DNA of 63,983 nt, filler included, from Hausera hauseri (taxonomy: Eukaryota): assembly GCA_046269625.1 (NCBI GenBank). It is 13 parts of 13 records of this genome, joined end to end, with 100 filler letters (N's around TTAATTAATTAA, not from the genome) between each part and the next. Parts side by side here need not be neighbours in the genome. Positions count along the whole stretch, not along the records: positions 51,384 to 55,804 come from JBJURY010590667.1; 12 more parts are not named here. The stretch is one strand, 5' to 3'. Position numbers and translations under genes: made by a program. Position 1 is the first letter of the stretch. Every line of letters starts with the position of its first letter. Below are positions 26,790 to 59,935 of the stretch, in pieces. The notes below the pieces were generated by a model. It did not search any database, had not been told where the DNA came from, and was given only the letters and a program-made list of their open reading frames with translations.

Positions 26790-26894
26790 TATGGAAACAG
26801 TGTTTATACTATAGCTATTTATATATGCGTGTGTAACACGATTACAAACAAATTATGTGGTGAGAAAAGGTTGTAGTATTACTATTATTATTAG

Positions 26895-27520: not shown

Positions 27521-27753
27521 TGATTATGATAAAAATGAAGAATTTCCAAAAAACCATTGTTAAACGTAAACCTACTACCAAGCGGGTGTCCAGCGGCAAG
27601 AAACGTGTATCAAAACGAACCACCGCTACAGTCAAAAGGTTAATCAATTCTGTGTTTCACCGAACAACAGCAGCAAGATGCAAATTACCATCACACTGGC
27701 AACGGTTAAACAACTACGTCTCATCAGAAGCATCAATACGTCCACAAAAAACC

Positions 27754-28075
27754 ATGCGATTCAAACGTAGTCAGCCATACTTTATTGCTTTGCTCAAGGC
27801 ACCTACGAGACATAAGCGAAACATGCTGCGGTCATTCCCACAATTTGTAGTAGACGATTTGATAAAAATTTTATACATTATCGTTGTGTCAGGTTGACAT
27901 TGGTAGTGCAAAGCGGAATTTATTAAAGTATCGAAAACGACTAATTGGCCTTGCCAACTCCCGTAGTAAACGACTAAAACGAGAGGTCATGTAGTGGCAA
28001 GACGGCGGACGCCTTGGTGCAATTCTACCGATTGTTACGTCATTATTGGGTAGGCTCATTGGTGGAAAAGTTTAG
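27754..28075 (+). pseudogene. Small basic Maverick virion-type protein ending QDGG-hydrophobic helix
   Basis: ..KREVM*WQDGGRLGAILPIVTSLLG; homolog at 52110-52440. Confidence 0.5.
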
Positions 28076-28184
28076 TATAAACGATGAAGGTAAGTATAAG
28101 GTTATTTGCTATATGGTGCATGGTTCTCATCTTTCTGTCCCAGTTTATCGAATCTTTCATTTACGTTTCGTTCAAATTGTTGTA

Positions 28185-29241: not shown

Positions 29242-30297
29242 TGAGCATTTATTTGAAACTTAATAGTAAGTGATTATCAGAACATGACAACAATACCGCT
29301 GAACGGTTTACCATGACGTTGGACCCGCCGCTCGACTTACGCCACGGAGTCTGGGAAGTGGCTTTAGCGGAATTCACGTTTACATTTTCATTAATAACTA
29401 CGTGAGAACAGTGGAATATACTATACCCTAGTAAGACAATCTCCTGCATCTAGTCGTTTGCAGTTAGTCCAAGACTCTAATGGAACATTTTACGTTCGCA
29501 ATTACAAGCGGCAATATTTCCCGGTTTATTTTTCATTTAAACAATCGATTGGTGCTAAAACACAAACATACGATTGAATTGCAATTTAAATCACTAGCCG
29601 ACTCTCAGGCATTGGGTTTTCAATCATCTGCCAATATGCGGTCAAAAGGTCTACAACTCGGTGGACATTGTATAATTAGTGAAAAATTGAACGTTTCCCA
29701 AAAACACCATGAAAACCACCGATATTACAGTGAAATGGCAAAAGACTGAATCATTTTTTACTCTCATACAACAGGAATGGGTTTTCTTACGGAAATGAAA
29801 ACATAATTGTGTACAACTATCAAGGCAGTAGCTAAATTGGCTCTCGAGACATTTGAATTAAACTCTGATGGTCGTATTTCGTTTACACTACACGATAATG
29901 TTACATATTTTGCCTATGATGAACTATTGGCAAGGAATCTGGGTTTTAAGAAACGAGAATTCGGTCAAACCGGCGCCGGACTGCCCATAGTTGCTAAAAA
30001 AACCGTCTCTACGAAACATTTCATCGAATCAATATTTTAACGATCTAACCGAACCCGTATGTCGGCAGGCACAAAAAACAACTATCGGCTTCTATTGGAC
30101 TGGATCCGGACACGTACAAAACACCGGGCGAAACTGCTCATGTAAATATCATCCGGCCCATGAATTTATCGTTGTCTCACAATGTTCTGCACAGTATTTC
30201 CATGCATATAGTAGACGAATTTTGGAAACCCATTAAATTTCTGTTTAGATCAACGACACATTTGACGTTACATTTTCGACGTCGTCAACGTCGATAA
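29241..30297 (+). pseudogene. Minor capsid protein (penton-like), copy 1
   Basis: MSIYL..PPLDL..WEVALAEF; C-terminal LTLHFRRR. Confidence 0.7.
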
Positions 30298-30336
30298 TAA
30301 ACAAACTACGTCATCATCACCATCATCATCGAGATC

Positions 30337-31396
30337 ATGAGTATTTACATGGTGTTACCGAGCAACAGTTGTCCGACTACTCGTTCGAACAATTCCGCTA
30401 GTGAATACGTTGCAGATTGGAACAATCCTTTGGATTTATTTACTGGACAATGGGAGGTTGCACTGACGGAATTTAACTTTCCCTACGCAACGGTAACATT
30501 AAAAGATAGTATGAAAATAACGTACAACAAAACTGTTACAGAAACCAAAACACATTCGTGTCCTCTGACACTTACTAACAATAAAATAACAATTGGAGAA
30601 TCGGGCATTTGCACGACAGAAGCAAATTACGGTATATTCGGCAAGATCGGTGTTTTTATTATAAATCCAAACTTACATTTTATGGAAGATTTTGAATTTA
30701 CCGTTACCTTTGAGTCCTCTGAGATGACTCAGAAATTTGGATTCAAAAATATAAGGTACAAAGATAAAGATATTAAAAGTGAATATGCAGTTGCTCCTGT
30801 GTATTACCAGACAACGGTGAAATTTACCTACACAACAGAAAAGGTGTCGACGTCATACGTATCGAATGGAGACCATGTCTATTTTGAATCTGTAGCACAT
30901 CTCTGTTAACACTTCTTTAAGTGAAAAGTACAAGGCGATATTTACAGTTTCCGAGTCAGATGCAAATGGGTACATTAAATTCGAACTGGCTAAGGATATT
31001 GTTGACATTTCATTGGACAAAGCTTTGGCCATGGTATTGGGTTTTGAAAAGCACCGGCTTGAGACATCATATACGAAGACAGGGGCGGAGATGGCAAATG
31101 TTGCAACACTCAAACCCAAACTAAAAACGGGACTAAGTCAAATGTACATTTACGTGAATGTCACCGAACCGATTTTGGTCGGTGGAGTACGTGTACCGCT
31201 ACTCTGTACAATTTATCCGGAAAGCAGCAAATATACTGCCGGCGACAATGTCATTGTCAATCTCGATAATCCAATGTATCTGCCTGTGGCATCCACATCT
31301 ATAATCAATGTTGAAGTAAATATCCAATGTGACGCGGGCTACCTTATTGAATTTCCGTACTGTACCACAACCAGTATCACTCTTCATTTCCGTTAA
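30337..31396 (+). pseudogene. Minor capsid protein (penton-like), copy 2
   Basis: YMVLPSNS..WEVALTEF; MYIYVNVTEPILVGGVRVPLL; NPMYLPV; ITLHFR. Confidence 0.85.
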
Positions 31397-31403
31397 ATAC
31401 AGC

Positions 31404-31769
31404 ATGATTGACTCTGAAATCGTTTCCATTTACAGTAAGCCTCAGCAGGGTGGATAACTGTCGTATTTCGTTGGTAAACAGTATGGCTCCGGATGGTTAC
31501 GTACATTAGCACATTTAGCAATTCCGGTGTTGAAGTGTGTCGGTGCCATGGCAGCAAAAACAGCACAGGACGTACTATATGAAAACAACTCGATTTTACC
31601 ATCACTGAAGAAACATGCATTGTCCGAAATAAAAAGCGGTGCACCGGGAGTCGTTGAATCAGTCAAAAAACAATTCGTTGGCAGTGCCTTGATGATGAGA
31701 AAACGCCGTAGAGCATCATCGAGTTCAACAGCTATAAACAAACGTCGTCGTCGTACGATTTTCGATTGA
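31404..31769 (+). pseudogene. Small pVI-like virion protein
   Basis: QQGG and QYGSG sites, amphipathic GWLRTLAHLAIPVLK, basic tail KRRRRTIFD. Confidence 0.55.
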
Positions 31770-31784
31770 TTGACAGATAGACAA

Positions 31785-32081
31785 ATGGCATCTGCAAAAT
31801 ATGAATTGTGTACACTGGACAAAGGCGCACCACAAGTTGTTATTGACAATACGGCATTTGAAGAAATCTACCCCGTTGATTCGGTTTCAACGGATGATAA
31901 CATTAACATTCAATTCAACATTATGGCATCGGACAATGATATCTGGATTTGAACGATACGCTACTCTATGTAAAAAAAAACTGTTCAAAAAGATGCATTA
32001 ACAATTCTCGCTGCAACAGACACTGTCACACCGGCCAATTACTTTTTCCTCACACTGTTCCAGGAGGCTTCACTGACTCTG
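31785..32081 (+). pseudogene. Maverick major capsid protein N-terminus
   Basis: FEEIYP..IQFNI..LNDTLLYVK; matches 34312-35535. Confidence 0.8.
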
Positions 32082-32181: not shown

Positions 32182-32760
32182 ATCTCGATCAAAGTGTATT
32201 TCGTTATCTATTCGGTTTCTCTGATCATTTCTGCGGTTATCATTTTTACGTGAATCAAAATTTTTCTGATCATTTTCAAAAAATCGATTAACGTTTTTCT
32301 GTCCTTTTGGTGCGGCAAATGATTCTATCATTTGGGCCTATTTACGGCATCAACAAAGTCACTAGGATATTTTGCCTGTACTTTATATTTCAATTTTGTA
32401 CTTAGTCCGTTCAAAAATTGAGTGAGCAATAATATGTCGGTATTTAATTATTTTTTCATAAAATTTCTTTTTTCTTTTTTCTACATCTAGTCGGACTGCT
32501 TCGACGTATTGGGAGACAATTTGTCATAGAGCATAGGCATATAGGGTGGCAGATTCATTATATTGCTGATGTCTGTTTTGTAACTTAATCAATTGTTGGT
32601 GTGGGGATAAGGTAGGATAGAACTTGTCAATAAAGGCAGTCTGTACGTTATGCAATTTGTCCTTTTCTTCATCTGTCAATTCATTGTAAGCCTCAGCTGC
32701 CATGTCTGTGAGGAACAATGGTAGTCGTCTGGCCATCTCGTTCTCTTATAAACCCATAGC
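32182..32760 (-). pseudogene. gag: Gypsy gag remnant
   Basis: RRLPLFLTDMAAEAY..F..QQYNESATLYA; QFLNGL. Confidence 0.65.
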
Positions 32761-33310
32761 TATAAGTAGGGGGGAGTGAGCGCTCCACCGCACTTCTCTG
32801 ATTGATCAGTCGACCAATTTTCTCCACATGATTGGCTATTTCGAGCATTTCGAAAATTTTCTCACAACCCCTCCCCGCGGGGACACGCTTTGGACATCGA
32901 ACCGACTCAAATCGGTAGAGCTCGACAATCTTAACAAAATTTAATAGCGGTGCGGCTTACAGAAATGTAAGAGAGAGGCGCTAGAACAGGAAGAATCAAA
33001 ACAGGAAATGCTAACGTGTAACGTGAAACATGGTGGTAGCATGGAGACAATGTATACAAAGGATAAATCGATGTTGGCGAATCCAATGGACATGGTTGCA
33101 ACTTAATCAGACAATGGGAACATGGGGAAAAATCTATGGGTAAATTTCAAACTAGGAAAATTTCCCCTTACACAAGTCAAACGGTGATGGAAATGGGTTG
33201 AGCATATAGCCCATCAGTAGTTCTGCTAGGGAAAAAAAAGAGTTCTGGACCAAAGGGGGGTCCATCCACGCACCAATTGATTAATCACAAGCGGCTCGCA
33301 TGCTGATTCG

Positions 33311-33671
33311 TCAATTCGACAACGGCGAGTTCATTGGTGCGGTTGGTTTTTGCGTGTCGCAAAAGACAAATCCAAGAAAAATGCAAAAGAACAAAACGAA
33401 CTTTTTGCAGCAGCAAAATGTGAGCAGAAGTGGATAAGAGAAAGTATAGAGTAGAGTATGGGCGTTCTAATGATGTGTGAAACATTGGGTTCGCATGTTT
33501 GGGAAAAGTGGAAAAGTCGGTCAAAGAGAGAAAAAGGTGGCGCCAATGAAAACGCAGGTGAATTTCAATGGATTCATTAATGTTAGCGCCGGTAGGTGAA
33601 TGGTTTGTGTTCAAATCGACAACGGCAAGTTCAGTGGTGCGGTCGGTTTAGCTTGTCGCAGAAGATAAAGC
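33311..33671 (+). repeat. Imperfect direct repeat of about 60 bp, two copies 300 bp apart
   Basis: tcaattcgacaacggcgagttcattggtgcggttggttt (33311) vs tcaaatcgacaacggcaagttcagtggtgcggtcggttt (33611). Confidence 0.8.
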
Positions 33672-33890
33672 CGGGATACGACGAGTTGACACGTGCAATG
33701 GTAAGGCGTAACGTTAAACAAGTGTTCGTTACGCACCAGACATGCCTGCATGCAAAACGAAATAATGAGTTGTGACGTAAAGCGTCTGTTTGTGCGTGTA
33801 GCAAAGGGACGTAGAAGTGATGGCAATAATAACGCATGTATAACAAAATACTGTATTTTTCTCAAAATGAACACAAAGTACAATCATTGT

Positions 33891-34200
33891 TCATCCAAGT
33901 ATCTGTAATGTTGGCCACAGTAAGCAGTAATGTCCACACAATACGGTCAGTGGATGTTGATAATGAAATAGATTGTATTCAACACGATATGACGCTGGTG
34001 ATTGTCTTTCAATTTGAGAAACTAACGATGACGGGTAGTAAAATCCGAGTGGATCGAATACTCTGACGACGTTGGTCAGATGGACGTACACAGCAATCCA
34101 ATGTTCACCTGGCAACAATGAAGTTTGTGTATTGACAATAAAGCCGCCAGTCTGTCGTAAATCACACCACGAAATTTCGCACCCAAGTTCAGTTTTCCGT
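33891..34200 (-). pseudogene. Adenain-type cysteine protease of Maverick
   Basis: VNT..PGEHWIAVY, FDPLG, YQHPLTVLCGHYC. Confidence 0.88.
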
Positions 34201-34311
34201 ACTGACTGCGCTCAGTGGAGCTAAATGTAAAAGAATGTAATAGTAATCAAAATAAATTTCTTCATAGCACCACGACGGCGAAGAAGAAGAAGAGGTGCGG
34301 ATTTTATTTAT

Positions 34312-35535
34312 TTATGCAATGACGGTTCCGTATTTCATTATTTCAACCTCGGCATCAAATACACCGTAAATGTACATCACGGTAAACTGCTCCAACGCTT
34401 TAGCAAAGTGACCCTCCAGTCTCTGTTTTCACTGGTGAGATAGTTGAGTCTGTTCAACGTCATAATTTTCAGCTAGTACAAAGGTGAAGAATGGATAGGT
34501 GGATTTGAAAAAATCCACCGATATGCTATTGTTGATATTTTTGTTCAATGAACCCATGTTGCGCACGATAGATTGCATATATGTGCAAACATAATCGCCG
34601 GTCTCGAAATCCTGCTAGTATGTCTCAACGAAATTCGCATTCGACCCAAACCGATGTAATTTACATTGATATGGGTAAACTTTTCCGAATCGGTGGTATA
34701 ACTTCCCGTTTGTTGAGCAGTCGTTTGAAATGTAACGAACACAAATTTTGGCAATCGCATGTCGCCAAACAGTGCATCTTTGTAAAATGTAGTTGAACCT
34801 TTTGGTATAGTGTAAATCACGAGTTCTATGCGTTGTAATGGGTAACAGGCATTTTGTTTTTTCCAAGCCCAATTGATGTCCCATGGGCACAGATTGTTCT
34901 ACCTTTACACGACGTACGTATAATCGTGCCCCGGTAATTTTCAGAATGGGTTTGAGATTTGCAACTGCAGTTTTCAAACATAAGACATTGTCGCTGAGTT
35001 TGAGTCGAATCATGGATTTAACACCAGGCAGCAGGTATTTCGGCTGATCGAAAAAGTCAAAGTACAGGGGTCCACACATCGTAAGTGCTTTTGATTCTGC
35101 CACCCATGCCTGACGGTTTGCAGCTGTGGCGTCATATCCGATGGTTTTCGTCAAATGAGTCGTTTTCGTGTCTGTACTGTAATTCAGAGCCGTTTCAGTG
35201 AGTGCTTTGATACTGAATAAACTGGTGTTGTCTTCAATTTTGAAGCTGTTTAGAGTCATTGAAGCCTCCTGGAAAAATGTGAGGAAAAGGTAGTTGGCCG
35301 GTGTGACAGTGTCTGTTGCAGCGAGAACCGTTGATGCATCCTTTCTAACAATGACTTTTACATAGAGTATCGTGTCGTTCAAATTGAGATATTCATTGTC
35401 TGATCCCATAATGTTAAATTGAATGTCAATGTTATCGTCCGTTGAAACAGAATCTTCTTCAAATTCTGCATCGTCAATAACAACTTATGGCGCGCCTTTG
35501 TCAAATATACACTATTCATATTTTGCAGAAGCCAT
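34312..35535 (-). pseudogene. Maverick major capsid protein (double jelly-roll, PY)
   Basis: GPLYFDFFDQPKYLLPGV, ARLYVRRVKV, RLPKFVFV, C-terminal YIYGVFDAEVEI. Confidence 0.85.
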
Positions 35536-35541
35536 TTAGTA

Positions 35542-36928
35542 TCAATCAATCGAAAATCGTACGACGACGACATTTGTTTATAGCAGAAAAGTAGCTGATC
35601 TACTACGTTTTTGTTTTCTCAAGCCACTGCCAGCGAATTGTTTTTTGACTGATTCAACGACTTTCGGTACAGTAGTTTTTATTTCTGACAAGGCGTGTTC
35701 CTTCAATGATGGTAAAATCGATTTGTTTTTATATATTACATCTTGTACTATTTTTGCTGCCACGGCTCTAATACGCTTCAACACCGGAAATTCTAAGTGA
35801 GTCAGTGTACGCAACCATCCAGAGCAATACTGTTTACCAACGAAATACGGCAGTTCACCGCCATACTAGGGTTTAGTGTAAATGAAAACGATGTCAGAAT
35901 CAATCAAGTTGTTCGTTTCGACGGAAATGAAGATTCAGACTGGTTGTGGTACCGTACAGAAATTCAATAAGGTAGCCCGGGTCACATATGATATTGACTT
36001 CAACATTGTTTATAGATGTAGTTGCCACAGGTAGGTACATTGGATTATCGAACTTGACAGTGACATTGTCGCCAGGAGTATACTTGCTGCTTTAAGGATA
36101 AATTACACGCAGTAGCGATACGCGTATTCCACCAACCAAAATCGGTTCGGTGACGTTCACGGAAATGTACATTTTACTTAGTCCAGTTTTCAGTTTGGGT
36201 TTAAGTGTTGCAACATGTGCAGCCGTCTTCGTATTCGACGCCTCAATCCGCCGTTTTTCAAAACCCAATACCATGGATAAAACTTTGTCCATTGAAATGT
36301 TGAAAATATCCTTAGCCAGTTCAAATTTAATGTACCCATTTTCACCTGACTCAAAAACTTTAAATACCTCCTTGTACTTTTGATTTGAAGAAAAGTGTTG
36401 ATAGAGATGTGCTACAAATTTGCAATAGACATTGATTCCAATCTATCCGTATGCTGTATAGGTAAATTTCAGCGTTGTCTGCTAATATACGGGATTTAAT
36501 CTGCGAACAACTGCATATTCACTTTTAATATGTTTACCATTGTACTCTGTATTTTTGAGTCAAAATTGATGCGCCATATCAGAGGACTCAAAAGTGACAG
36601 CAAATTTAAAATCTGCCATAAAATGTAAGTTTTCCCCTAAAATAAAAACACTGATCTTGCCGTATAAACCGTAATTTTTACTGGTCGTGCCAATGGGCGA
36701 TTCTCCAACTATTATTTTATTGTCAGTAAGTGTCAGAGGACAAAAATGCGTTTTGGTTTCAGTAACAATCTTTTTGTACCTTATCTTCATACTATCTTTC
36801 AATGTCACTGGTGCGTAGGGAAAGTTAGATTGCGCCAGTGCAACCTCCAATTTTCCAGATAAATACAAAGGATTGTTCCAATCTACAACGTATTCACTAG
36901 CTGAATTGTTCGGAAGAGTCGTCGGACA
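35542..36928 (-). pseudogene. Maverick pVI-like gene and minor capsid copy 2 (second element copy)
   Basis: Colinear homology with 30337-31769. Confidence 0.8.
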
Positions 36929-45824: not shown

Positions 45825-47207
45825 GTTCCCGTACCGCGCCGTCGACGCCGGTTGGAGCCGCCGAGACTTGGCCGAACATCCACTGAGTCCAGTTCGGACG
45901 ACGGTTCGACTCGTCCGCGCCGAAGCCCGAGGATCCATCCGGTCCTCTCCTCTACCGAGGACTCGTACGCCTCGGCGGACGAACCGATTGCGGATAAAAA
46001 TAAAATTTTCAAACTTTGTTTGATTTTCGTTTATTGTTTGACGTTGTACCCGTTGGTTTTGCTCGACCGTTTTATAAAATGTAAAACCATGAAAATGGTG
46101 GCAGCGGTTACCGCATTTACGACTTTCAATACAAATTCAGCCATTGAAATCAATCCGGCTCGAACACTGCACACGGCAGTTGATAAAAGTCCGGCTAAAA
46201 GTCGCACAAGTGCCGTCGAAATTAATCCGGTCACACAATCGTATATCAGCAAGTATGATCACGTAACACCCACTGACAGTTTTACTAGTAAAATCAACTG
46301 CAATTAGAAAATCACAATGAGTGATTCTGAACAAGTGCTAAAATATCCTAGCACTAACACACGTGACAACATAATTCACTATGGTGAAACACCATCGACC
46401 GATAGTACGCCAAACGAAGTACAACTCANNNNNNNNNNNNNNNNNNNNNNNNNNNNNNNNNNNNNNNNNNNNTTAATTAATTAANNNNNNNNNNNNNNNN
46501 NNNNNNNNNNNNNNNNNNNNNNNNNNNNTATATGACATTATGAAGATATTAAAGTTACGATCCACACCGGGACATCCGGAGAATAATGGAATGGTTGAGA
46601 GATATATTGGAGACTTGAAAGGGAAATTACAAACGGTAGTAAATACTAGGCAAAATGATTGGGGCGAATATATCAATGCATGTGTTTTCGTAAATCGGAC
46701 ATCGGTTTATGAATCCACTAAAGAGACACCCTTCTACTTTATGTATTTACGGGACGCAAGGTTACCGATTGATCTAGATTTTAATGTGAAACCCATTTCA
46801 CACTTAATGGAAGTAGAAGATTATATGCAGTTAATGCAGGAACGCCTACAGTTAGTATATAAAATGATTGGTGAAAATCAGAAAGATTATAAACTAAGAT
46901 ATGAAAAATATTATGATCAAAAGACCAAACAGCAAAAATTAAAATAGGCAACCAAGTAATGTTATATTCACCGGTAATTAAAAAGGGTAAAACGTCTAAG
47001 TTAGATAGACCATATAAAGGACCGTATGAAGTAGAAAAAATAGATTTACCGAATATTTGTTTGAAGAAAAATAATACTTCTGTAAAAGTCCATGTTAATA
47101 GATGTAAACCCTATGCCAAAGAGAGCAAACTAAGAAAAGGTGAAAAAGAGTCGGTATGTAGCATCAGTAAATAGGTAATCGAAATAAGTTCAACAAGTAA
47201 ACTTCAG

Positions 47208-48565
47208 ATAAAGGAGGTCCTACTACTAATCATTATATTGTTATCTTCCCTAGTGATAGGACAGATAACGAATTCGGAAATCGAACGTGCAAAAATAAGA
47301 CATGCCATAGCTGTACAAGAAGATCTGTTAATGAAAGCTTTACGGTACAAAATAACATATTCAGAGAAAGGTCAGAAAGTAATAATTTGGAGTATGTTAG
47401 ACCAAATGCCGTCCACATATATTATGGGAATACAAATGATACCTTGTCACGATAACAAAAGAGACCCTAATGAGCGACAGTATAATTGCCTATTCCACGC
47501 AGGGACCAATCACACAGAACATCTAGTACAAGACTCAGGTGTTTATTATATATATCTGACACTCATAAGAAAACAAGGAGACTACTATAGAAGCAGGGAA
47601 ACAAAATTGCCAGATAAATAGTAATCCCTACCAGACAACAGATGAACGAAACGTTATTATATGAAATAATATTCAATCAGTTGATAACAAGGCCGATGGG
47701 ATTTAAAAGCGGGATACGATTAGAAAATACTCGAAGAATAACAATAAAGCTAATAGACACAGTGATTTCAGAAGTCAAAGTTTGCAGGATTAAAGGTAAT
47801 CAGCAACGAGTTTGTTGTACGGTTACGAGAGGAAAAATATATCATGTTTATTATCTTCTGTTTCGAAAAAAGAATGGTAAATTCAGGTATCCAGTAGAAC
47901 GAAAAGGACCAACAATGTTCATACGATATAAAAATCAAAAAGAGTACTATGATATACCAGAAAAGATCACGATGCCATCTGTGCAATTCTCGGCTGATAA
48001 AAAAGAGATTACTATCTTAATTAAACCTTACGCTTCATATTATCGTCAAAAACGTTCCATAGGGGATAACGTAACTATCATAGCAGCCCCCACTGCATTA
48101 ATTATATCCGTTAAATTTTATCTTGATTTTGTAAGAATTAACTTTAGTTGTAAGAAACAAGATACCATAGTAGCAAAAGGAGTTATAACCCCCGATGATC
48201 TGATAGTGTCATGTGCGGCCTTGGAGTCTGATACGAAACACACGGTCATTCTACAATTGTTAGATTACAATGACAAAATAACCTCTACAAAAGTAATGTC
48301 CGCTATCACAAAAAGTAACAAAGTAGAATCACCACATGGGATAAATACAGTTAAAAGTAAAACAACTAAACAGCCATCACGATCGGTGTATAAGTATTCT
48401 CGCCTAGAAATAATCATAATAGGTTCAATAGTTCCAATAGCAGTTGCAATAATAGTAGTGATATTGTTTAAGGTGATACGACGACGACACAAGAGGAAAC
48501 GAAGCTGCGTACGAATTAACCTACGTGAGCTAACGAACCCGTTAGCAACTGACAATTCCAGCTGA
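47208..48565 (+). pseudogene. Env-position type-I membrane protein (signal peptide, C-x9-CC, FN3-like, TM, basic tail); one frameshift near 47630
   Basis: (ATA)KEVLLLIIILLSSLVIG|Q, CRIKGNQQRVCC, LESDTKHTVIL, IIIIGSIVPIAVAIIVVILF-KVIRRRHKRKR. Confidence 0.75.
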
Positions 48566-48746
48566 CGGTTAAGTCTAGGGATTGCTGTTTATGCAACCCT
48601 TTTAATAGAGATAACCACATGTCACCAGGTTACCTACAAGAATAAGTTAAAATATAAAACTACAACGATTACCATTGTGTGTTTGATAACCATTGTGCTG
48701 CGTGTAGATATCTGTAATGACTTTTTATTGACATTTCTTTCTACAG

Positions 48747-49990
48747 TATCAACTTCAACCGCTAACCAGATACAATCAATCACCAGGTCGAAACATTGGT
48801 TCAGTAACGCCAAAACCCACCTCATCAATGCCACCCCAGCCAGTCAATATTACGTAGTCCACAACGACTATACCTATAGTCTAAATTATCCCCAGACGCT
48901 ACAGATCCCAAATAATCTCAAAGGCTACAGTATGGGCAATCGGTCCTTAGCCATAATTCAGTTAACGAAAGCAACATCATTCTATCTCCAGGACCTAATA
49001 ATTCTGCCGGAAAGATTTCACTATATGAACATCTATAACATTGCGGGCAAATTCCATATTAAGTCGACAAGCCGCAAAACCTCAATACAGAGAGAGCTAA
49101 TTAATATGGATCCAAATCGTGCTCTCGCCTTTAAATCCAAATTTATAAAGGACATTACATTAATGATTCGCTTCCTTTCAAATCGAATTATGATCGCATT
49201 TGAGATCATCAAACATGAGACCTTTCAACCAAGCGTCCCAGAGGGTAGATGTTTCCATCTTCCGGAACCCGACTATCTTCGCTACAAGACAGTCCCTTAC
49301 AGACGAATACAAAACGTCACAAACGCAGATATGGTCATAGCCGCCGTCAACTTAGCGTATGACCAATGGAGTCAGATGCAGCCAATCCAATGCTCGGTCA
49401 TAATGCTAGATGGTCAAACCCTCTTCTATAGCGTCATCTCTCCTCGACAAAGGATCAATAATTTTGATACCCATCTGACGGGTTTAGCGGAATCACACAT
49501 AAATAATCAGATGGATACCAACGAGTTTTATCGAAAGATCACGGAGATTCTAACGGCCAAAATTATAATCGGAGCTGATGTTCTTGAAATGGTAATTAAC
49601 CACTGTAAGTGTCCAGTCAGACGGATAGCCGGAGATCGTGATATCTTTTATCACGAAGAGGCTATCCGTAAGTATCAATTGACTACAAATACTTATAAGG
49701 AGTTGGCAAAGAAATTCTACGATACTTGTGGAATGCCATTCCGAAGCACTGCCTTGGTACAATGCCACCAGGTCATATACAAGCAACTTAAATGGACTGA
49801 TGAAGTTATCACTCAGACCACGGCCTCCGATCCGGTGCGAATAAAACCCACCTCTGGTAGTAGAAAAAGAAAGTTCCAAGCAGATGAATCGGTGGTGATT
49901 GACAACGAAGTTTATGAACCAGAGGCAATCAGATACAAAAGCAGGACCTCGGATAAATTTATACACGTTCAACTATCATTAGACCAATAA
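48747..49990 (+). CDS. Spliced accessory exon encoding an N-terminal domain plus an inactive DEDDh exonuclease-like domain
   Basis: Open for about 414 codons; acceptor TTGACATTTCTTTCTACAG ends at 48746; LDGQTLFYSVISPRQRINNFDTHLTGL..KIIIG..RD resembles REX4/ISG20. Confidence 0.7.
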
Positions 49991-50139
49991 CATTCTCGCG
50001 ACTCTCTCACTTTCTCCAGTTATTAAAATTTGTGGCAATTTTCTTTAACCCCGATCCTTTCTGATGACTTTTAACCCCAACTGATCTTAAAAATAGACAT
50101 TCCATTACTATGACAATTTAAAAATAGACTACTTTGTGT

Positions 50140-50473
50140 TGATAATGTTAAAGCTGATTTAGTTTATTGCACTATTCATAATTTGGACATATTTGATATG
50201 GTTATTTTATCACAATTGTATTTTGTCCTAATTTGGACATATTCGATGTAGTTATTTTATCACAATTGTATTAACTTAAACATATTTGGCATTACGTGTC
50301 CTAATTTGGACATTTCGATGATAATGTAAAAGCTGATTTAGTTTATTGCACTCGTCCTAATTTGGACAGATTGGATGTTGTTATTTTATCGCAACTGTAT
50401 TAATTTAAACATATTTGGCATTACGTGTCCTAATATGGACATTTTGGTGAACAGACAGGGACTATATATATAA
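50140..50473 (+). promoter_or_regulatory. U3 enhancer: tandem duplications with four perfect CArG boxes, then a TATA box
   Basis: CCTAATTTGG at 50227, 50300 and 50356; CCTAATATGG at 50429; TATATATATAA at 50463. Confidence 0.75.
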
Positions 50474-50966
50474 CATACGGTAGTCCTTCAGACCATAAGC
50501 AGACGTTGTCTATTTGTAAAACTTTGATACGATCATCTATCTCCATGTCTACCTGTAAGTGTAATGTTTGATTTCATATTTTGCTTGTTAACAATATACA
50601 GTCATATCTTTTTGAAATTATATTATTATTTTATTGAAGTCTTTTTACTAAATCAAGAGAGTAATTAATTAATCGATAATTAATTAATCGATAATTAATT
50701 TGGTATTTGGTCGACCAGGTCTAACACTACCTGACGACCGCCCGTATAATTTTCAGTAAAGTATATGGTAGTAAACCATGTAAATAATTTAATAAATCGA
50801 AGACTGGCCCATACACATTACCTACTAATAGTTAGGTAGGTCAACGCAACGCCTCTATGCATATCCACTCACAGCGGCTAATCAAGTTAAAGTTAATTGT
50901 TCGTCCCATTAATTAACCATTTACGTAGAAGCCTCTCCCAAAGTAATTAGTGAGGATTGAACAAAT

Positions 50967-50984
50967 TGGTGCCGTAACCCGGGA
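50967..50984 (+). promoter_or_regulatory. tRNA-His primer-binding site
   Basis: TGGTGCCGTAACCCGGGA is near-complementary to the tRNA-His 3' end. Confidence 0.85.
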
Positions 50985-51112
50985 TCATTATTTCAAGACC
51001 TTTGGGTTAAGAAAGTATCACCATTACCACAAGAAAAGGAACAATTTATCACCCAGAGGAAAACAAACCCTTCGGACTAGAGTATTTAAGAAATCTAAGT
51101 GAGGGCGAACTA

Positions 51113-51283
51113 ATGGCTAACCATAACGTAGAGCAGGTGATTCAGTCGAAGGCTGATTTCACTTTACCGAAGAAAAAATTTTCGGGCAATGAGGATATAG
51201 AGGATTTTATGATGGAATATGAAGTATATTCCAAAAGTTTCGGCTGGGACGACAAGCAAAGAATAGAAAGATTACCCCTTCAT
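51113..51283 (+). CDS. gag: gag N-terminus (cut by contig end)
   Basis: KFSGNEDIEDFMMEYE....GWDD....RLP. Confidence 0.8.
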
Positions 51284-51383: not shown

Positions 51384-52074
51384 TATATTTTTGGAGTTTA
51401 GTTGCTCGTTGTCGGTTTTGATAGTCACATGTCCAAATCATCGATTACGTCAACCGGGTGCGTTCCGTTGATTCCACGGCGTGTCGAATGATTGTATGCA
51501 TGAATAATATTTGGAAGTACATTTATCCAGTATTTGGTGCCTTGCTTCGTAAAAAATTTCTTTAGGCGACCGCGCAATGTTCGATTAAATCGTTGTATTG
51601 GGAAAACACAGAGTAGTTGTTTTCACCGAACCGTTTCAACACCGCTGAAACGTGGGTGTTGTAGAATTCCTTACCCAAATCCCTTTGTAAATGCTGCGGC
51701 TGTTGTTGTATCAGTGTCTGAACAGCGTCTGCAATCTCTTTACCGGATTTAAATTTGAGAGCAATTGAACGCACAAAACGACTAAACCCATCAATATATG
51801 TCAACACGTACCGATATTCATCGTTAATGCTGGCGTACGGAATCATTTCCATCAGATCCATTTGCCATACATTATTTACACCGGCAGCGCAGTATGAAAG
51901 AGTTGGACACCGACTTCTTATCGGTTTGTTTAGGCTGTATGCTAACTGTTTCCCCAGCCAACGTTGGATTTGTCGCCGAATTTGTTTGGCAGTCTTTGCC
52001 AGTTTGTCGCCGCCAGTATACCCGACGGCATGACACAGATCGAAATACACATCGCGCATCGCTTTTATTTGCAT
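51384..52074 (-). pseudogene. Maverick integrase
   Basis: WQMDLMEM, YVLTYIDGFSRF, LQRDLGKEFYN. Confidence 0.88.
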
Positions 52075-52667
52075 TGCAGAAATGAAACGTTAATGAAAGA
52101 TTCATATACTTACAGTAATTGTTTATAATATGCTGCAGAATCACTGAGTCTAACCAGTAATGACATGACAATCGGTAGAATTGCACCACCATCTTGATGA
52201 TACATGACCTCTCGTTTTAGTAGTTTTCTACGAGCGTTAGCAAGGCCAATGAATCGTTTTCGATACTTTAGTAAATATTGCTTCCCACTACCAATGTCAA
52301 CGTGACCCACAAATATATTGTACAAATGTTCCATGAAATTGTCTACTACAAATTGCGGGAATGATCGTAGAATGTTTCGCTTATGTCTCATGTGCCTTGA
52401 GTAAAGCAATAAAGTACGGCTGACTACGTTTCAATCGCATTTTTGGACGTATTGATGCTTAGACGTACTTGTTTACAACCGTTGCCACTGAGATGGTAAT
52501 TTCCATTTAATTGCTGCTGCTGCTGCTGCTGTTTATCGAAGCACATAATTGATTAATCGCTTGACTCTAGCGGCTCCTTTTAATACATGTTTATTGCCGG
52601 GCACCCGCCTGGTATATTTATGTTTAACAATTGTTTTTCGGACATTCTTAATTTTATAACTATCGTG

Positions 52668-53315
52668 TTAATTTTTGAATTTGTTTATAGACACATATAC
52701 CTTTCTGATTGAAAATGTCTGTTTATCCACACATGTCATCGTCCCACTGTTTTGTAAAGTCAATAAACGGATATCCATGTGGTTGTTCGTAGAATCACAA
52801 TATGTATCTCTCATGTAGGCTCGTTTGTGATTAAATGCTTGTCGTGCAACATAATCAATGAAAGTCTGATCACGAGGATTTTTAAGCAACACCAAATAGT
52901 GTACGTTTAGATTTCGTGTTTGATTCTGTCCGCCCTAATGGAACATGTTTTGCGTAATGAAAATAACCATCACACCACGGTGTTATGCAATCTTCGTTAA
53001 CAGATTGTTGAATTCCGATTGTTTCGCGGCTTCCTAAGATAAATTGTCAATGGCAATAAGATCACCGTTGCGTAATCTCTGAGACCAGTTTTCATCAAAC
53101 TAATCAATTACCGCTATCGATTTCAATTTACAAAATTCCCGATGTGTCAAATTGGACTCACCATCATCAGCAATTCCCTGATGCCATTAAATATGATTGT
53201 ATCGCGGTGAATGGAACATGCTACGGTAGTTCTGCAATAATTTACACACAAAGTGTGTTTTACCCGTTGCACTGGGGCCCACAATCTGTAGAATTGCGTC
53301 ATTGTGCAGCTTTAT
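52668..53315 (-). pseudogene. Packaging ATPase
   Basis: Walker A IVGPSATGKT, LIAIDNL, ITQNMF, KNPRD. Confidence 0.88.
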
Positions 53316-53403
53316 TTAAATAATAATACAACCTTTCCTCACATGATTTGTTTAAAATCGTGTTACACATATAAATAGCTATAATATAAACTCTGTTTCC
53401 ATA

Positions 53404-53900
53404 ATTTGAGCTAATATCAACTATCGCGGATATGTTACCGAGTGTGACATTAACATACTACCTTTTAATCAATGGAAGTCGAGGAAGTATATCCTCAAGT
53501 GTCCACAGGATTTTACATGCATCATATTTCAATCGGGAAAGTGTCGTATTATGGGTTGTCGCAAACCAATCACAGCTGAGAGTGACAGTAAACTTCTGCC
53601 ATTCCGAATTGTCATTGTCCAAATCCAATCAGTAACAGTAACGACTCATTTAGACTACCAAACAATCAATCCGTACAAATTAGAAATGGCCACTGAATGT
53701 ACGAATGAACCTGAACTGCTTCCTGCACTGAGACTGATATTGTTTTGCCCACTTTGTCTCAATGTGTTTAGCAGAGGAAAATTGTTGTACTCGGTATTCG
53801 GACAGTGGACTATGATCCGATTCGTAATCAAATTACAAACCACGCAAATGTTTTAGTGAGTCAAAATAATGTACTCTACACAACAAGAACAAATGATAAA
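53404..53900 (+). pseudogene. TBP-like gene, second copy
   Basis: TCIIFQSGKCRIMGCRK..IQSVTVTTHLDYQTINPYKL..EPELLPAL..PLCLNVFSRGK. Confidence 0.75.
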
Positions 53901-54746
53901 TACCATTCTCATGGTCATTCAGACATTATTGCCACGGAAGACGACGATAAAACGATTGTACTCAATTATGATGGATGTTGAATGATAAAAGTTAAGATTG
54001 GTCGTGGTTTTTTGGCTACAAAAGGATAATTCTACTGTCAAATTTCTGGAGACGAAAACAGAACCTGTCCAACAAATAAAAAAACCGTTTTACTGTTTGC
54101 GGGGAGATTATGATGTCGACTGTCTGGAAAGGAAAAAGGAACTTGCTCAGAAATTATCAGCAGTAGCAGCAAAATCGACGTTAAAACGAAAAAATGCAAT
54201 GATTGGAATAAATAAAGGAAAATCAAAATCGTCGCACCAAACAGACATTTTTACAGAAACGAATTTTTCGCAAGTATGAAATGCATTCTCTGCAAACGCC
54301 CGTACTGATTTCATTCAATGCTTCCGTCTCTCTATGTGCACCTACATGCAGTTGTCGTATAAAACGGATTTTGGATGAAAATTTGGATAAACTTTCTTAT
54401 GCTGTGCATCAATTAAACGTGGATTTAAAGTTGAACGAAACGACTGTGCAACAGTAATCTGTCGATTTACCGGTTCATGAAATCAAATTGTTTATTTTAT
54501 CGGTCGCGAAATGTCTCATGTATCCTATGGTGATTTAAAGTGTCGACTGAATATTGAATTACAAGGATGCAAGGAAAAAGCAGGTATCAAAAGCCCTATT
54601 TGGCGTGTAGCTGAAGCACATTTTAATTATCAATAAATATTGTTGTTGTTGTTTTGTTTTATCTTTCTTCTTCTTTCATTAACCCAATTAATGAGTATAA
54701 ATATACGTGTAATTTTAATATTGGTATAGGAATAAGAATAATTCTA

Positions 54747-55210
54747 ATGAATGATGTAAAGATTATCTTAACAGACTGAAATGCCTTTTTACAGAAACTT
54801 GTTACAGCAAACAGTGCAGGCTACGATGTGTTTTCCAATGTCAATACGACAATTTCTCACAGCAAAATCAAATGCATAAAGACTGGGATTTGATTGGCGA
54901 TGCCATCCGGTTTCTACGACCAACTTTTATCGAAAAGAGCATTGGAAAACTCGGACTGACGGTTGTGGGCGGTGTCATTGATTCAGACTTTCGTGATAAA
55001 ATTAAGGTGTTGCTGGAAAACCAATCGGGACTATTGTATGATATTGCGAAAGGCAATGCAATAGCACAAATCGCATTTCTTCGATTTGAAGAGGCGGAAT
55101 TCAGTGTAATGTCACCTGAACAATGGAGATTGTTTTGCGTCAATGAATCGACACGAAATGAGCGCAAAGAATTTGGCTTTGATTATATGGACAAAACCAC
55201 TTATGTTTAA
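54747..55210 (+). pseudogene. dut: dUTPase
   Basis: SAGYD, IKTGI, GVIDSDFRDKIKVLL, KGNAIAQ, ERKEFGF. Confidence 0.9.
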
Positions 55211-55287
55211 TGATTGTGATAATAATAATAATAGTTAGTTGTTTTGCTTGTGTTATAAACCAAAAATGATTTTGTACATGATAAGTA

Positions 55288-55776
55288 ATGGCGACAGGAT
55301 TTATAGATATTGAAGATTTACAAGATGATAATGCTCGGTACATAATAAAGGAATTATGCATTATGGTCATCGGTGACATTTTCAAACCGATTGTGTACGT
55401 ATTCAACCTCGGTGTTGTGTGGAATGACCTGACGGAAAAGGCGCAATTTACAAATTGATTTCTCTTTCCATATCGTCATGGATTTCATTGGTATGAAGGC
55501 AATTCAATTTTCTGTGTGACGTGTGTTATAGGAGAGATTTGCGATCGTTTTGGCATTGGAAATATAATATTTTACATTAGAGATCAAATTGACGAACAAA
55601 AGTTTACACAACTACATTCACACTTTCCCGAGTTGCGAATTACGACTTATTCAACATCGAAGGGCTCGCTGACGATGGTCCTTGACAATTGTAGATGTCC
55701 GTATCGTGATCATGGACCACATTATGCTTACAAAATATGTCTACGGCTTTGTATTGACTATATTTCATGCAAATAA
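55288..55776 (+). pseudogene. DnaQ/DEDD-like exonuclease typical of Mavericks
   Basis: GFIDIED..YIIKELC..HGFHWYEG..CPYRDH. Confidence 0.55.
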
Positions 55777-55904
55777 ATAAATGTATTTCTCTGTTTCTTT
55801 CTTTNNNNNNNNNNNNNNNNNNNNNNNNNNNNNNNNNNNNNNNNNNNNTTAATTAATTAANNNNNNNNNNNNNNNNNNNNNNNNNNNNNNNNNNNNNNNN
55901 NNNN

Positions 55905-58308
55905 GTTCTTTCGTTCGTTCGTTCGTTCGTTCGTTCGTTCTTTCGATATTTCCCCCTTTTGTTTATTCGTTCGCTCCTTTGTTCCTTCGTTCCTTCTTTC
56001 ATTCGTTCGTTCATTCGGTTTTTCATTTGTACTTTCCTTCCTTCATTCCTGCATTCCTTCGTTTTTTTGTTCTTTCTTTCTTTGGATCGTCACTTCCTTT
56101 GTTCCTTCCTTCCTTCCTTCCTTCTTTCTTTCGTTCCTTCCTTCGTTCGTTCGTTCTTTCGTTCGCTCGTTCGTTTTATCATTTGTTCGTTCGTTCCTTC
56201 GTTTGTTCATTTGTTCGTTCCATCCTTTGTTTGTTTCTTCGTTCCTTCCTTCCTTCTTTCACTCCTGCGTTCATTCGGTTGTTCCTTCTTTCTTTCCTTC
56301 CTTCCTCCCTTCATATCTTCATTCGTTTGTTCTTTCCTTCGATGGTTCGATCGTTCGTTCTTCCTTTCTTTGTTTCGTTCATTCGTTTAATTGTTCGTTT
56401 GTTCATTCCATACTTCTTTTGTTCCTTCTTTCCTTCCTTCCTTCTTTCGTTCCTGCTATCACTCGGTCTTTCCTTCGTTCTTTCCTTTTTTCCTTCTTTC
56501 TTTTGTTCATTCCTTCGTTCGTTCGTTCATTCGCTTATTCCTTTGTTCTTTCGTTTATTATTTCGTTTGTTCGTTCGTTCTTTCTTTCTTTCATTCTTTC
56601 TTTCTTTTTTCCTTCGTTTGTTCGTTTGTTCGTTCTTTCCTTCCTTTGTACCTTCGTTCCTTCCTTCCTTCTTTCGTTCGTGCGTTCATTCGTTCTTTCC
56701 TTCGTTCCTTTATTCGTTAGTTCGTTCGTTTGTCTTTTCTTTCGATCGTTAGTTTCTTTGTTCCTTCCTTCCGTCCTTCTTTCTTTCGTTCGTTCTATCG
56801 TTCATTCGTTCGTTGGTTCTTTCATTCTTTCGTTTGTTCCTCCTTTCCTTTGTTCGCTCGCTCCTTTGTTTCTTTGTTTTTTCCTTCCTTCTTTCGTTCG
56901 TTCGTTCCTTCATTCTTTCTTTCGTTCGTTCCTTTACTCCTTCGTTCCTTCCTTGCTTTCTTTCTTCCTTCGTGCATTCATTTCTTTGTTATTTCTTTCC
57001 TTCCTTCCTTCACTCCTTTGTTCTTTCGTTCGTTCGTTTTTGCTTTCGTTCATTCGTTCTTTCCTTCGTTTTTTCGTTTTTTCCTTCCTTCATTCGTTCG
57101 TTCTTTCATTCTTCCTTTCGTTCGTATATTTGTTCCTCCGTTCGTTCGTTTGTTCGTTCCATCCTTCCTTTGTTCCTTCGTTCCTTCCTTCCTTTTTTCA
57201 TTCCTGCGTTCATTCTCTCTTTCCTTCCTTCATTCCTTCATTCGTTCGTTCGTTCGTTCGTTTTTAAGATCGCTCGCTCGTTCTTTCGTTCGTTCGTTCA
57301 GTCGTTCATTCCTTTGTTCTTTCATTTTTTCGTTCGTTCCTCCTTTCTTTTATTCGTCCTTTTCTTTGTTCCTTTGTTTTTTCCTTCCTTCTTTCCTTCG
57401 TTCCTTCCTTCATTCGTTTGTTCGTTCGTTACTTCTTTCTTTGGTTCTTTCTATCGTTCCTTCTTTCTTTCCTTTGTTTATTCGTTTATTTTTTCGTTCG
57501 TTCTTTCGATTGTTCCTTCGTTCTTTCGTTCGTTCGTTTGTTCGTTCGATCGTTCTTTCTTGATTTCGTTTTTTCGTTCGTTCCTTCGTTTTTTGTTCGT
57601 TCGTTCGTTTGTTTGTTTGTTCTTTCTTTCCTTCTTTTGTTCCTTTGTTCCTTTTTTCCTTCTTTCGTTCGTACGTTCATTCGGTCTTTCCTTTGTTCTT
57701 TCCTTTTTTCCTTCATTCCTTCCTTCGTTCGTTTCTCCTTTCTTTCGATCGTTAGTTCCTTTGTTTTTTCCTTCCTTCCTTCTTTCTTTCGTTCATTCCT
57801 TCGTTTGTTCGTTCATTCGTTTGTTCGTTCGTTCGTTATTTCGTTGCTTCGTTCATTCTTTCGTTCGTTCGTTCTTTCTTTCGTTCGTTCCTTTTCTCCT
57901 TCGCTCCTTCCTTCCTTTCTTCCTTCGTGCATTCATTCGTTCGATATTTCCTTCCTTCTTTGCTTCATTTTTCCGTTCGTTCGTTCATTCTTTCTTTCGT
58001 TATTTCGTTTGTTCGTTAATTTCTTCGCTCGTTGTTTCGATTGTTCCTTTGTTCGTTCGTTCGTTCGTTCGTTTGTTCGTTCGTTCGTTATTTCTTTCTT
58101 TTTTTATTTCCTTCCTTCGTTCATTCGTTCATTCGTTCGTTCGTTCGTTATATCATTCCTTCTTTCGTTCGTTCCTGTTTTCGTTCTTTCGTTCGTTCAT
58201 TCGTTCGTTCGTTCGTTGTTTTGTTGTTTCGTTTTTTCGTTTGTTCGTTCGTTTGTTCGTTCTTTCGTCCTTGCGTTCATTTATTCGTTCTTTCCTTCTT
58301 TCATTTTC
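55905..58308. repeat. 2.4-kb degenerate tetranucleotide microsatellite (TTCG/TTCC/TTCT/TTCA)n
   Basis: Directly visible. Confidence 0.97.
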
Positions 58309-58477
58309 TAAAATGTGGTGTGAATTTTTTTGTACATCTAACTCATAATTGAGTACTTCTACTCCTACTACTATTCACAAGAAAAATGAATGTGACATTG
58401 TATTATTTCTCATTATTTGTTCGCTCTTTGGTACATGAAACAGCAGCAATTAAATAATACAGATATATTTTACAAAA

Positions 58478-58800
58478 TTCATTGTAATGTAGACCACATT
58501 AAGCAATAATGTCCACATAGTATATTCATTGGATGTTGATAATGAACTCGATTATATTCAACACGGTATTATGATGATGATGCTTGCAGTTCAATTTGAG
58601 AAACTAACGATAACGGATAGTAAAATCCGAGTGGATCAAATATTCTGATAACGTTGGTCGGATGGACGTACACAACAATCCAATGTTCGCCCGGCAACGA
58701 TGAAGCGTGTGTATTGACAATGAAGTCGTCGCCACCAGTTTGTCGTAAATCACACCGCACACAATCCAGTGGAAACACTCCACGAAATTTCGCGCTCAAG
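58478..58800 (-). pseudogene. Adenain-type cysteine protease
   Basis: FRGVFPLD, FIVNT..PGEHW, FDPLG, YQ..CGHYC. Confidence 0.88.
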
Positions 58801-58931
58801 AGCAGTTTTTTGTTGTGACTGAGTTCAGTGAAGCTAAATGTGAATTAAGTATAATAGTAATAGTATTAAATTACTTCATAGTATGACGAAGAAGAAGAAG
58901 ACGTACGACGGTGCGACACAGCAGATTTTAT

Positions 58932-59935
58932 TTATCTATACAATACGGTTCCGTTTTTCGTTATTTCAACCTTGGCATCAAATACGCCGTAAATGTACAT
59001 TAAGGTAAACTGCTCCAACGCTTTAGTAAAGTAAATCTCCAGTCGTATGTTTCCCTGCTGAGATAGTTGAGCCTGCTCAACGTCATAGTCTGAAGCCAGG
59101 ACAAATGTGAAGAATGGATAGGTGGACTTGAACAAATCCATCGATATGCCATTGTTGACAATTTTTTTTCAGCAAATCCATGTTACGCATGATAGATTGA
59201 ATATCTGTGCAAACGTAATCGCCGGTCTCGAAATCCCGCTTGTATGTCTCAACTGAATCCGCATTCCGACCTAAACTAATGTAATCCACATTGCTATGGG
59301 TAAACGTTTCCGAATCGGTGGTAAAACTGCCCGTTTGTTGAACAGTCGTTTAAAATGTAACGAGCGCAAATTTTGGTAATCACATGTCGCCAAACAGTGC
59401 ATCTTTATAAAATGTAGTTGAACCTTTCAGTATGGTGTAAAAGACGAGTTCTGTGCGTTGTGTCGGGCAACAGACATTTTGCATTTCCAAGCCCAATCGA
59501 TGTCCCATGGGCACAGATGGTTCCACCTTTAATCGGCGTACGTATAATCGTACCACAGTAATTTTCAGTATGGGTGTAAGCTGTGCAACGGCGGTTTTTA
59601 AACAAAAAAATTGTTACTGCGTTTGAGCCGAATAATGGCTTTAACACCAAGCAGTAGGTATTTGAACTGATCGAAAAAGTCAAAGTACAGCGGTCCACAC
59701 ATTGTAAGTGCTTTTGATTCTGCCACCTATACTTGACGGTTTGCCGCTGTGGCATCGTATCCGATGGTTTTCGTCAAATGAGTCGTGTTCATATATGTGC
59801 TGTAATTCAGAGCCGTTTCAATGAGTGCTTTGATACTGTATAGACTGGTATTGCCTTTGATTTTGACGCTGTTCAGAGTCAGTGAAGCCTCCTGGAACAG
59901 TGTGAGGAAAAAGTAATTGGCCGGTGTGACAGTGT
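58932..59935 (-). pseudogene. Maverick major capsid protein
   Basis: Homologous to 34312-35535; QGNIRLEIYFTKAL. Confidence 0.85.

Follow-up and report, generated by a model that had tools for sequence, protein, structure and literature searches.

A Polinton family of short TBP-fold proteins with a matching promoter-like TATAAAC box

Introduction

Among viruses that encode their own TATA-binding protein (TBP), beta- and gammaherpesviruses carry a TATTWAA (TATT) box at late genes, and in KSHV (Kaposi's sarcoma-associated herpesvirus) the protein ORF24 pairs a polar DNA face with this late box (PMC12529657). Nucleocytoviruses mostly encode their own TFIIB; the N-lobe regulatory signature is not conserved in their TBPs, and the stirrup glutamate is conserved at about 40% (PMC7221094). 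In TBP, a basic patch on the N-lobe binds TFIIA, TAF1, Mot1 and Brf, and two C-lobe stirrup glutamates contact TFIIB (PMC7221094). Here we analyzed a 63,983-nucleotide stretch of the Hausera hauseri assembly GCA_046269625.1 (hereafter, the window), which consists of 13 contigs of 4-6 kb each with N spacers between them, and in which a first-pass annotation made from the sequence alone had proposed that a Maverick/Polinton element encodes a divergent TBP-like factor acting as a late-gene switch or a decoy. We describe the protein family to which this gene belongs and a promoter-like box, TATAAAC, that accompanies it.

In the literature searched, from which subscription journals were largely absent, the sole relevant work on a TBP or a late promoter in Polintons, Mavericks or adintoviruses was that of Starrett et al. 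2021 (PMC8502044; bioRxiv 10.1101/697771), where the label 'TBP' stands in a figure legend on MELD viruses. Elsewhere in the searched text of PMC8502044, neither TBP nor promoters come up. The main text of a survey of viral TBPs is silent on polintons (PMC7221094), and no work in the literature searched treated TATAAAC, Hoogsteen pairing and TBP together.

Results

A divergent TBP-fold family encoded by Polintons

Both TBP-like genes in the window, copies A and B, are dead, because their reading frames are broken (Table 1). The limits first given for them (26291-26789 and 53404-53900) were nearly right, the gene ends lying slightly inside, near 26360 and 53885. Copy B keeps an open frame (53410-53856) that matches the Pfam TBP family at E 1.9e-5, with 24.8 bits against a gathering cut-off of 22.9. 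Two intact relatives share much of this frame, P0001 at 71% identity and P0002 at 68%; in P0001 the 71% identity extends over residues 3-123 (53410-53787), and residues 121-157 are encoded in another frame (53778-53885). Copy A also covers P0001, on the minus strand, in multiple frames and with deletions.

Proteins of four intact related loci score 47-64 bits with Pfam TBP. A single-sequence search of the PDB with the window frame gave no match, so that a profile was needed for a structural assignment; the family profile matched 35 PDB sequences (best E 3e-18), every one of them a TBP or a TBP fusion. An AlphaFold2 model of intact P0002 (pLDDT 96, pTM 0.86) superposed on TBP in VIA with Z 14.1 and a root-mean-square deviation of 2.5 over 146 aligned residues, the first non-TBP entry scoring Z 6.5, and Foldseek returned 44 matches at E<=0.001, all TBP-containing among the matches listed. 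The canonical repeat-1 helices with their basic patch are not there, the model having no helix before residue 84. The predicted structure of this short subfamily is thus a two-repeat TBP saddle in which both helices of repeat 1 are absent. Both the Pfam and the structure-prediction checks suggested with the first-pass annotation accordingly came out in favor of a TBP, and the TBP motifs that it quoted were found in one or both copies, with the reservation that repeat 1 retains its strands only.

With a profile of six sequences, 39 representatives were recovered at E<=1e-30; at E<=1e-10 there were 251, canonical TBPs among them. A 67-sequence profile gave, out of 1,914 candidates, 289 proteins at E<=1e-10. 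Among the matches listed, family members came from metagenome and read assemblies, and their names, where present, were automatic 'TBP' labels; two named eukaryotic profile matches were ordinary TBPs by sequence, and no TRF2 sequence was among the matches returned. Some members exceed 200 residues (P0112, P0036, P0038 and P0043), and P0112 apparently has an extra C-terminal TBP repeat. A scan of a viral contig collection found no relatives; in a phage collection there was no ATPase match, and TBP matches came only from haloarchaeal viruses.

A quick tree was built from 73 rows, namely 26 short and 26 long proteins, 8 loci, the window frame and 12 canonical TBPs, with unnamed rows classed by eye. 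All 61 family rows were separated from the canonical TBPs by a long branch (SH-aLRT 100), which upholds the expectation of a separate lineage with respect to canonical TBPs; TRF2, proposed as a further comparison, is not part of this tree. Proteins of the short form made up a clade (99) nested among the longer ones. The window frame was sister to P0001 and P0002, with an end branch of 0.34 compared with 0.05 for these intact sisters. Taken together, the Pfam score, the fold match, the separate branch and the Polinton gene context described below bear out the proposal of a divergent, Polinton-encoded gene of the TBP family.

Residue conservation was examined in 175 non-redundant proteins, obtained without a motif filter by 80% dereplication of 208 candidates of 140-200 residues. 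Yeast numbering was assigned via a plant-type TBP (+41) and agrees with what Table 1 of PMC12529657 gives for yeast. Several TBP positions are kept, namely N69 (in 160 of 175), F116 (172), F190 (174), P191 (158) and F207 (174), as are the TFIIB-contact stirrup glutamates E186 (165, plus 7 with D) and E188 (173), within a conserved C-terminal stirrup, EPELFP. Other positions have been substituted almost uniformly: V71N in 144, V122R in 171, T124M in 174, N159S/T in 174, V161T/S in 172 and L205N in 174. The canonical set of four intercalating phenylalanines and two central asparagines is therefore incomplete, with three and one kept, respectively. The helix-2 span is 27 residues or shorter in 138 of the 175, versus 35 in TBP. 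Because the substitutions at DNA-facing positions are near-fixed, the DNA face appears to be rewired rather than decayed; judged from these alignments, the family combines it with a regulatory lobe without helices and an intact TFIIB stirrup.

A positioned TATAAAC box and two promoter-like classes

The gene context of the family was surveyed in 57 metagenome loci, 24 of which are at least 3 kb long. The motif TATAAAC was noticed first and then tested on dereplicated upstream regions, with 500 dinucleotide shuffles as background. ATAAAC lay within -60 to -14 of 42 of the 70 packaging/virion-type genes (shuffle mean 3.7, maximum 10), and the full TATAAAC in the same interval of 31 (shuffle mean 1.0). 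Within -60 to -20, ATAAAC preceded 13/14 packaging ATPase and 8/9 core genes, 1/16 genes of a predicted single-stranded DNA-binding protein (SSB) and 2/37 TBP genes. The labels capsid, core, pVI-like and DEDD, here and below, are ones that we presume from resemblance and gene order, with no Pfam confirmation. TBP genes had TATAAAC upstream in none of 37 cases and TATAWAWR in 17 (shuffle mean 2.9), and 16 of 21 TATA-bearing TBP genes had an initiator-like TCA 24-36 nucleotides (nt) after the TATA box, with a peak at 29-32; only 7 of 80 ATAAAC sites were followed by such a TCA.

Across all 57 loci, 58 of 138 TATAAAC sites were situated 29-45 nt upstream of the first ATG, and 61 of 80 unique sites were at 31-37 nt before it. 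Controls in the same interval gave 2/138 for the reverse complement, 4/188 for TATAAAA and 0/58 for GTAAACA; we rejected a forkhead-site reading on the first and last of these counts. An artefact of coding frame was rejected as well, since 41 of the 80 sites were outside open reading frames (ORFs) and the remainder in all three frames. Positioned sites were found in 37 of 58 TBP loci and in 22 of 25 loci of at least 3 kb. Among these are long-form elements that diverge deeply, as well as L058; this locus, retrieved after the motif had been recognised, contained three. The first base of the motif did not co-vary significantly with the short or long TBP form (T in 33/48 versus 3/8, P 0.12). In the window, the box stands upstream of two putative major capsid genes and of the DEDD-like gene (Table 1).

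These distributions suggest two promoter-like classes, with TATAAAC at packaging/virion-type genes and, often, a host-type TATA box plus initiator at TBP genes. A variant TATA box would then precede late-type genes and not the gene of the factor itself, as in the herpesvirus viral TBP (vTBP) system, the TBP copies of the window excepted. TBP genes without a TATA box (L034, L035, L040, L043, L046 and others) often have a TTTGTTTTA-like motif about 50 nt upstream, still with the initiator-like TCA; this motif is possibly a second early promoter type.

Gene context in the window and in related elements

Maverick/Polinton fragments occupy four contigs of the window (25785-32081, 32182-36928, 51384-55804 and 55905-59935). 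An A32-like packaging ATPase and an rve integrase beside the TBP-like gene mark the element as a Polinton. Protease fragments are also present in the window, whereas protein-primed polymerase B was found only in related loci such as L048, and putative capsid ORFs are conserved and in the expected order, without a Pfam match. The contigs carrying copies A and B are 77% identical across 3,261 nt (89% in the TBP-like gene and 84-87% in the ATPase and integrase parts), and both copies have frame-breaking indels in their TBP-like, ATPase and integrase parts. From this identity, and from the 26,352 contigs of one public run (X1) that map onto this stretch at all identity levels, we conclude that the two copies belong to one high-copy Maverick/Polinton family; the first-pass annotation was right to see two copies of the TBP-like gene, and its view of them as independent fell. 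Each copy is divergent from the packaging ATPase across about 100-120 bp, and here too the annotation holds for the window; as a conserved layout, this head-to-head arrangement was rejected, as none of the 18 related loci with both genes has them directly so and 16 have them co-directional.

Table 1 Features of the Polinton fragments in the window.
Feature	Position	Strand	Remarks
TBP-like gene, copy B	53404-53885	+	Broken: no ATG at start position, one frameshift near 53780
TBP-like gene, copy A	26360-26789	-	Broken: several frameshifts and deletions; tblastn to P0001/P0002, translations
Canonical TATA box TATAAATA before copy B	53370-53377	+	In divergent intergenic region of roughly 100 bp
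Canonical TATA box TATAAATA before copy A	26816-26823	-	
TATAAAC before copy B	53385-53391	+	About 19 nt upstream
TATAAAC before copy A	26802-26808	-	About 19 nt upstream
TATAAAC before putative major capsid gene	31733-31739	+	About 50 nt upstream
TATAAAC of further putative major capsid copy	35576-35582		
TATAAAC before DEDD-nuclease-like gene	55254-55260	+	About 34 nt upstream
Packaging ATPase (A32/FtsK-like), head-to-head with copy B	52681-53309	-	Broken; tblastn 58% to L008 ATPase (Pox_A32 match)
Packaging ATPase, head-to-head with copy A	26901-27456	+	Broken; tblastn E 6e-58
Polinton integrase	28218-29235	+	Broken; tblastn E 6e-94 to L008 integrase, Pfam rve
Polinton integrase, second copy	51446-52053	-	
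Putative minor capsid protein	30346-31393	+	Broken; tblastn, no Pfam match
Putative major capsid protein, start	31785-32081	+	tblastn, no Pfam match; continues at 58941-59930 (-)
Putative major capsid gene, further copy	34318-35535	-	
Protease fragment	33915-34148		Reference protein matches Peptidase_C5
Putative DEDD-nuclease-like gene, copy B contig	55288-55776		Also given as 55288-55767
dUTPase fragment, copy B contig	54755-55210		Pfam
Fragment of predicted T7 gp2.5/Enc34-type SSB gene, downstream of copy B	54233-54442	+	Hidden Markov model (HMM) of alignment A6, E 1.6e-5
Predicted SSB-like gene, downstream of copy A	25814-26029	-	HMM E 7.9e-10

Among the related loci, 27 of 57, and 18 of the 24 that reach 3 kb, contain ATPase, integrase, capsid, polymerase or protease genes, and 45 of 57 contain any element-associated gene; Pfam confirms the references for ATPase, integrase, protease and one polymerase. 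The commonest neighbor of the TBP-like gene is a small conserved gene (e.g., L008:1788-2135) predicted to fold like the T7 gp2.5/Enc34 SSB. The family model aligned with such SSBs at Z 8.3 (Enc34), 8.2 and 7.2, and Foldseek gave no match for it at E<=0.001. As its predicted fold is that of an SSB, we rejected this neighbor as a transcription partner. In some loci a sequence resembling a short intron lies upstream of the SSB-like gene. No Pfam match to TFIIB or RNA polymerase was found among 89 other neighbor ORFs.

Relatives also contain host-like accessory genes, including leucine-rich-repeat genes (L029, L030, L036 and L045), a ubiquitin-conjugating enzyme (E2; L028:225-719), a dual-specificity phosphatase (L009:4008-4316), a RING finger (L041:1710-2168), and KilA-N and PLA2-like genes (L048, L056). 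Maverick fragments L058, L059, L060 and L061 lie within four bacterial genome bins and are probably host contamination.

Two contig ends in the window (32020-32081 and 59874-59935) have 62 identical bases in common; because of this overlap, the two contigs probably represent a single insertion in which capsid and protease genes are followed by a long TC-rich simple repeat (55905-58350). Several other contigs contain retrotransposon fragments. At 147-4122 and 46529-51283, retrotransposon-like fragments are followed by long ORFs without a Pfam match (2784-4121 and 47618-49987), and one of these two ORF sets has a predicted membrane segment. Patched/sterol-sensing-domain-like ORFs at 10719-13043 (-), with a weak Pfam match under the cut-off, are probably a host gene or a retrocopy.

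Discussion

A candidate late-gene switch and what weighs against it

We think it probable that the intact TBP-like protein, made early, is the late-gene initiation factor of its element and works as a viral TBP, reading TATAAAC and recruiting host TFIIB and RNA polymerase II (Pol II). The late-gene switch offered in the first-pass annotation gains support at the sequence level from the two promoter classes, 'early' and 'late' being labels that we infer from gene type. In the proposed mechanism, host TFIID would transcribe the TBP-like gene early, from its TATA plus initiator promoter. The viral TBP would then bind (T/C)ATAAAC(A/G); this variant of the TATA box has C at position 7, and host TBP may use it poorly. 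In yeast, a C at this position makes the HIS3 TR element inactive, and it forces a Hoogsteen pair (PMC4457894). Replacing host TBP at TATAAAC, it would bring in host TFIIB and Pol II via its two stirrup glutamates and, without the basic helix 2 of repeat 1, might escape control by TAF1, Mot1/BTAF1, TFIIA and Brf. ATPase, core and capsid genes would start about 30 nt 3' of the box. A TATA box lies at -31/-30 relative to the start (PMC4422821), and if TATAAAC is placed likewise, its position near the ATG would leave late transcripts with leaders of only a few bases. The broader proposition, that a large group of Polintons uses a one-protein late switch, in which a helix-deleted TBP with its own TATAAAC box works with host TFIIB and Pol II, needs no TFIID or viral partner and is immune to Mot1 and TAF1, is one that we hold more tentatively, at not quite an even chance.

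Several observations weigh against this reading. The loci in which the motif was discovered also served for its first test, and many of them are related. Within -60 to -20, ATAAAC is rare at integrase (1/4), pVI-like (1/6) and protease (1/5) genes, precedes only about half of the capsid genes (major 5/9, minor 4/9), and is also found at the non-structural DEDD-like gene (8/13). In the window, an exact TATAAAC stands 19 nt upstream of both TBP copies, nearer than the 31-37 nt peak, which the model leaves unexplained, and the ATPase copies have near-matches to the box only. The decayed Maverick L061, which has no TBP match, has no positioned site at 33 ORF starts; the motif's dependence on the TBP gene is not thereby established, because the TBP-less control consists of this one element and a 926-bp relative. 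The C(-25) variant of the adenovirus box presumably reads TATAAAC as well. Wild-type TBP has been crystallized on it (title of PDB 1qn3), so host TBP can bind a position-7 C variant. Finally, F99, N159, R196 and K201 are lost, which could mean weak DNA binding, and the F99 column is misaligned in the 175-protein set, so that the figure for its replacement by proline (132 of 136) comes from a motif-filtered set whose filter fixed other positions and not F99.

The loss of F99, N159 and several basic backbone contacts, together with TFIIB-contact glutamates that are among the best-kept residues, is also what would be expected of a decoy, the other role considered in the first-pass annotation. The viral TBP would then sequester host TFIIB and dampen host or antiviral transcription, with the box read by host TBP, as the 1qn3 crystal permits, or by another host factor. 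We consider this unlikely, because the DNA-face residues are near-fixed alternatives and not the product of drift, one would expect a promoter for host TBP to contain TATAAAA/T, like that of the TBP gene, and the forkhead-type GTAAACA has no positional signal (0/58). A different departure from the late-switch model would have the viral TBP read TATAAAC together with a second, unrecognised element or helper-virus factor or polymerase, beyond host TFIIB and Pol II. Known viral TBPs are mostly paired with their own TFIIB (PMC7221094) or with several viral activators (PMC12529657), and most neighbor ORFs belong to no Pfam family in elements none of which is complete. The retention of both host-type glutamates, the lack of a TFIIB or polymerase match in the 89 ORFs, the predicted SSB nature of the sole conserved neighbor and the host Pol II-type promoter of the TBP gene make such a partner quite improbable.

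That the SSB-like gene is the most frequent neighbor, and that the tight distance of the motif is to the ATG and not to a mapped start site, might point away from transcription altogether: the protein could bind AT-rich element DNA, for example by bending terminal repeats when the element is replicated, integrated or packaged, with the motif as an unrelated promoter or translation signal. A conserved TFIIB stirrup and a strand-specific motif one base from a TATA box make this very improbable. We attach almost no weight to the reading of the gene as a host TBP pseudogene of recent capture, or as a match that arose by chance and has no function. Both window copies are broken and the window frame has the long end branch noted above; the adjoining ATPase and integrase are decayed as well, and the many intact relatives have near-invariant residues, a separate clade and a consistent Polinton context. 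The long branch of the family and its place among Polinton genes likewise speak against the recent neutral host pseudogene that the first-pass annotation had named as a refutation. For the family the pseudogene reading is largely refuted, and it is true only in that the two window copies are dead.

If the broader, one-protein proposition is correct, no simpler orthogonal Pol II promoter system would be known, and elements long classed as transposons would give direct evidence of a temporal, virus-like gene program. The pair of factor and box, one 150-residue protein and one 7-base motif, makes it testable when Maverick/Polinton genes are expressed and whether the elements go through a true viral cycle. 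The protein also represents a natural dissection of TBP, with the regulatory helices dropped, the TFIIB stirrup kept and the DNA face rewired; it could show how TATA specificity changes, and it may lend itself to use as an orthogonal Pol II promoter system. In addition, the box flags where genes of these elements start and which of them are virion candidates.

Comparison with known TBP systems

The Polinton proteins form a real family, short and of TBP fold, which is accompanied by a promoter-like box that matches it and is barely noted in searchable papers. With cellular TBP (PF00352) they share the saddle fold (Z 14 over 146 residues) and N69, F116, F190, P191, F207, E186 and E188; they differ in their length of about 150 residues, in the absence of both repeat-1 helices in the subfamily, and in F99P, V122R, T124M, N159S/T, V161T and L205N, with 20-28% identity in structural alignments. 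TRF2 (TBPL1) is encoded by the host and has two complete lobes. It resembles the Polinton protein as a divergent TBP paralogue that does not bind the TATA box and contacts TFIIB (PMC4422821), but it binds TFIIA (PMC4422821), whose site is missing in the Polinton protein. The TBP-like proteins of nucleocytoviruses share the TBP fold and were the best BFVD matches (E 1.6e-7); unlike these viruses, the Polinton loci have no TFIIB match among the 89 neighbor ORFs.

The vTBPs of beta- and gammaherpesviruses (KSHV ORF24, Epstein-Barr virus BcRF1 and human cytomegalovirus UL87) are similar in combining a viral TBP fold with a more polar DNA face and a TATA variant at late genes, and Foldseek matches to BcRF1 and UL87 were weak (E 0.007-0.05). 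KSHV ORF24 differs in being 752 residues long, in having all four phenylalanines and no TFIIB glutamates, and in binding Pol II directly with five more viral proteins needed, whereas the Polinton protein is a bare saddle that carries the glutamates and has no Pol II-binding N-terminal domain or C-terminal domain as in the herpesvirus vTBP. We regard the herpesvirus vTBP as a likely analogue in function and make no claim of orthology. Late transcription directed by a viral TBP is already known, and the Polinton family would be a variant of it.
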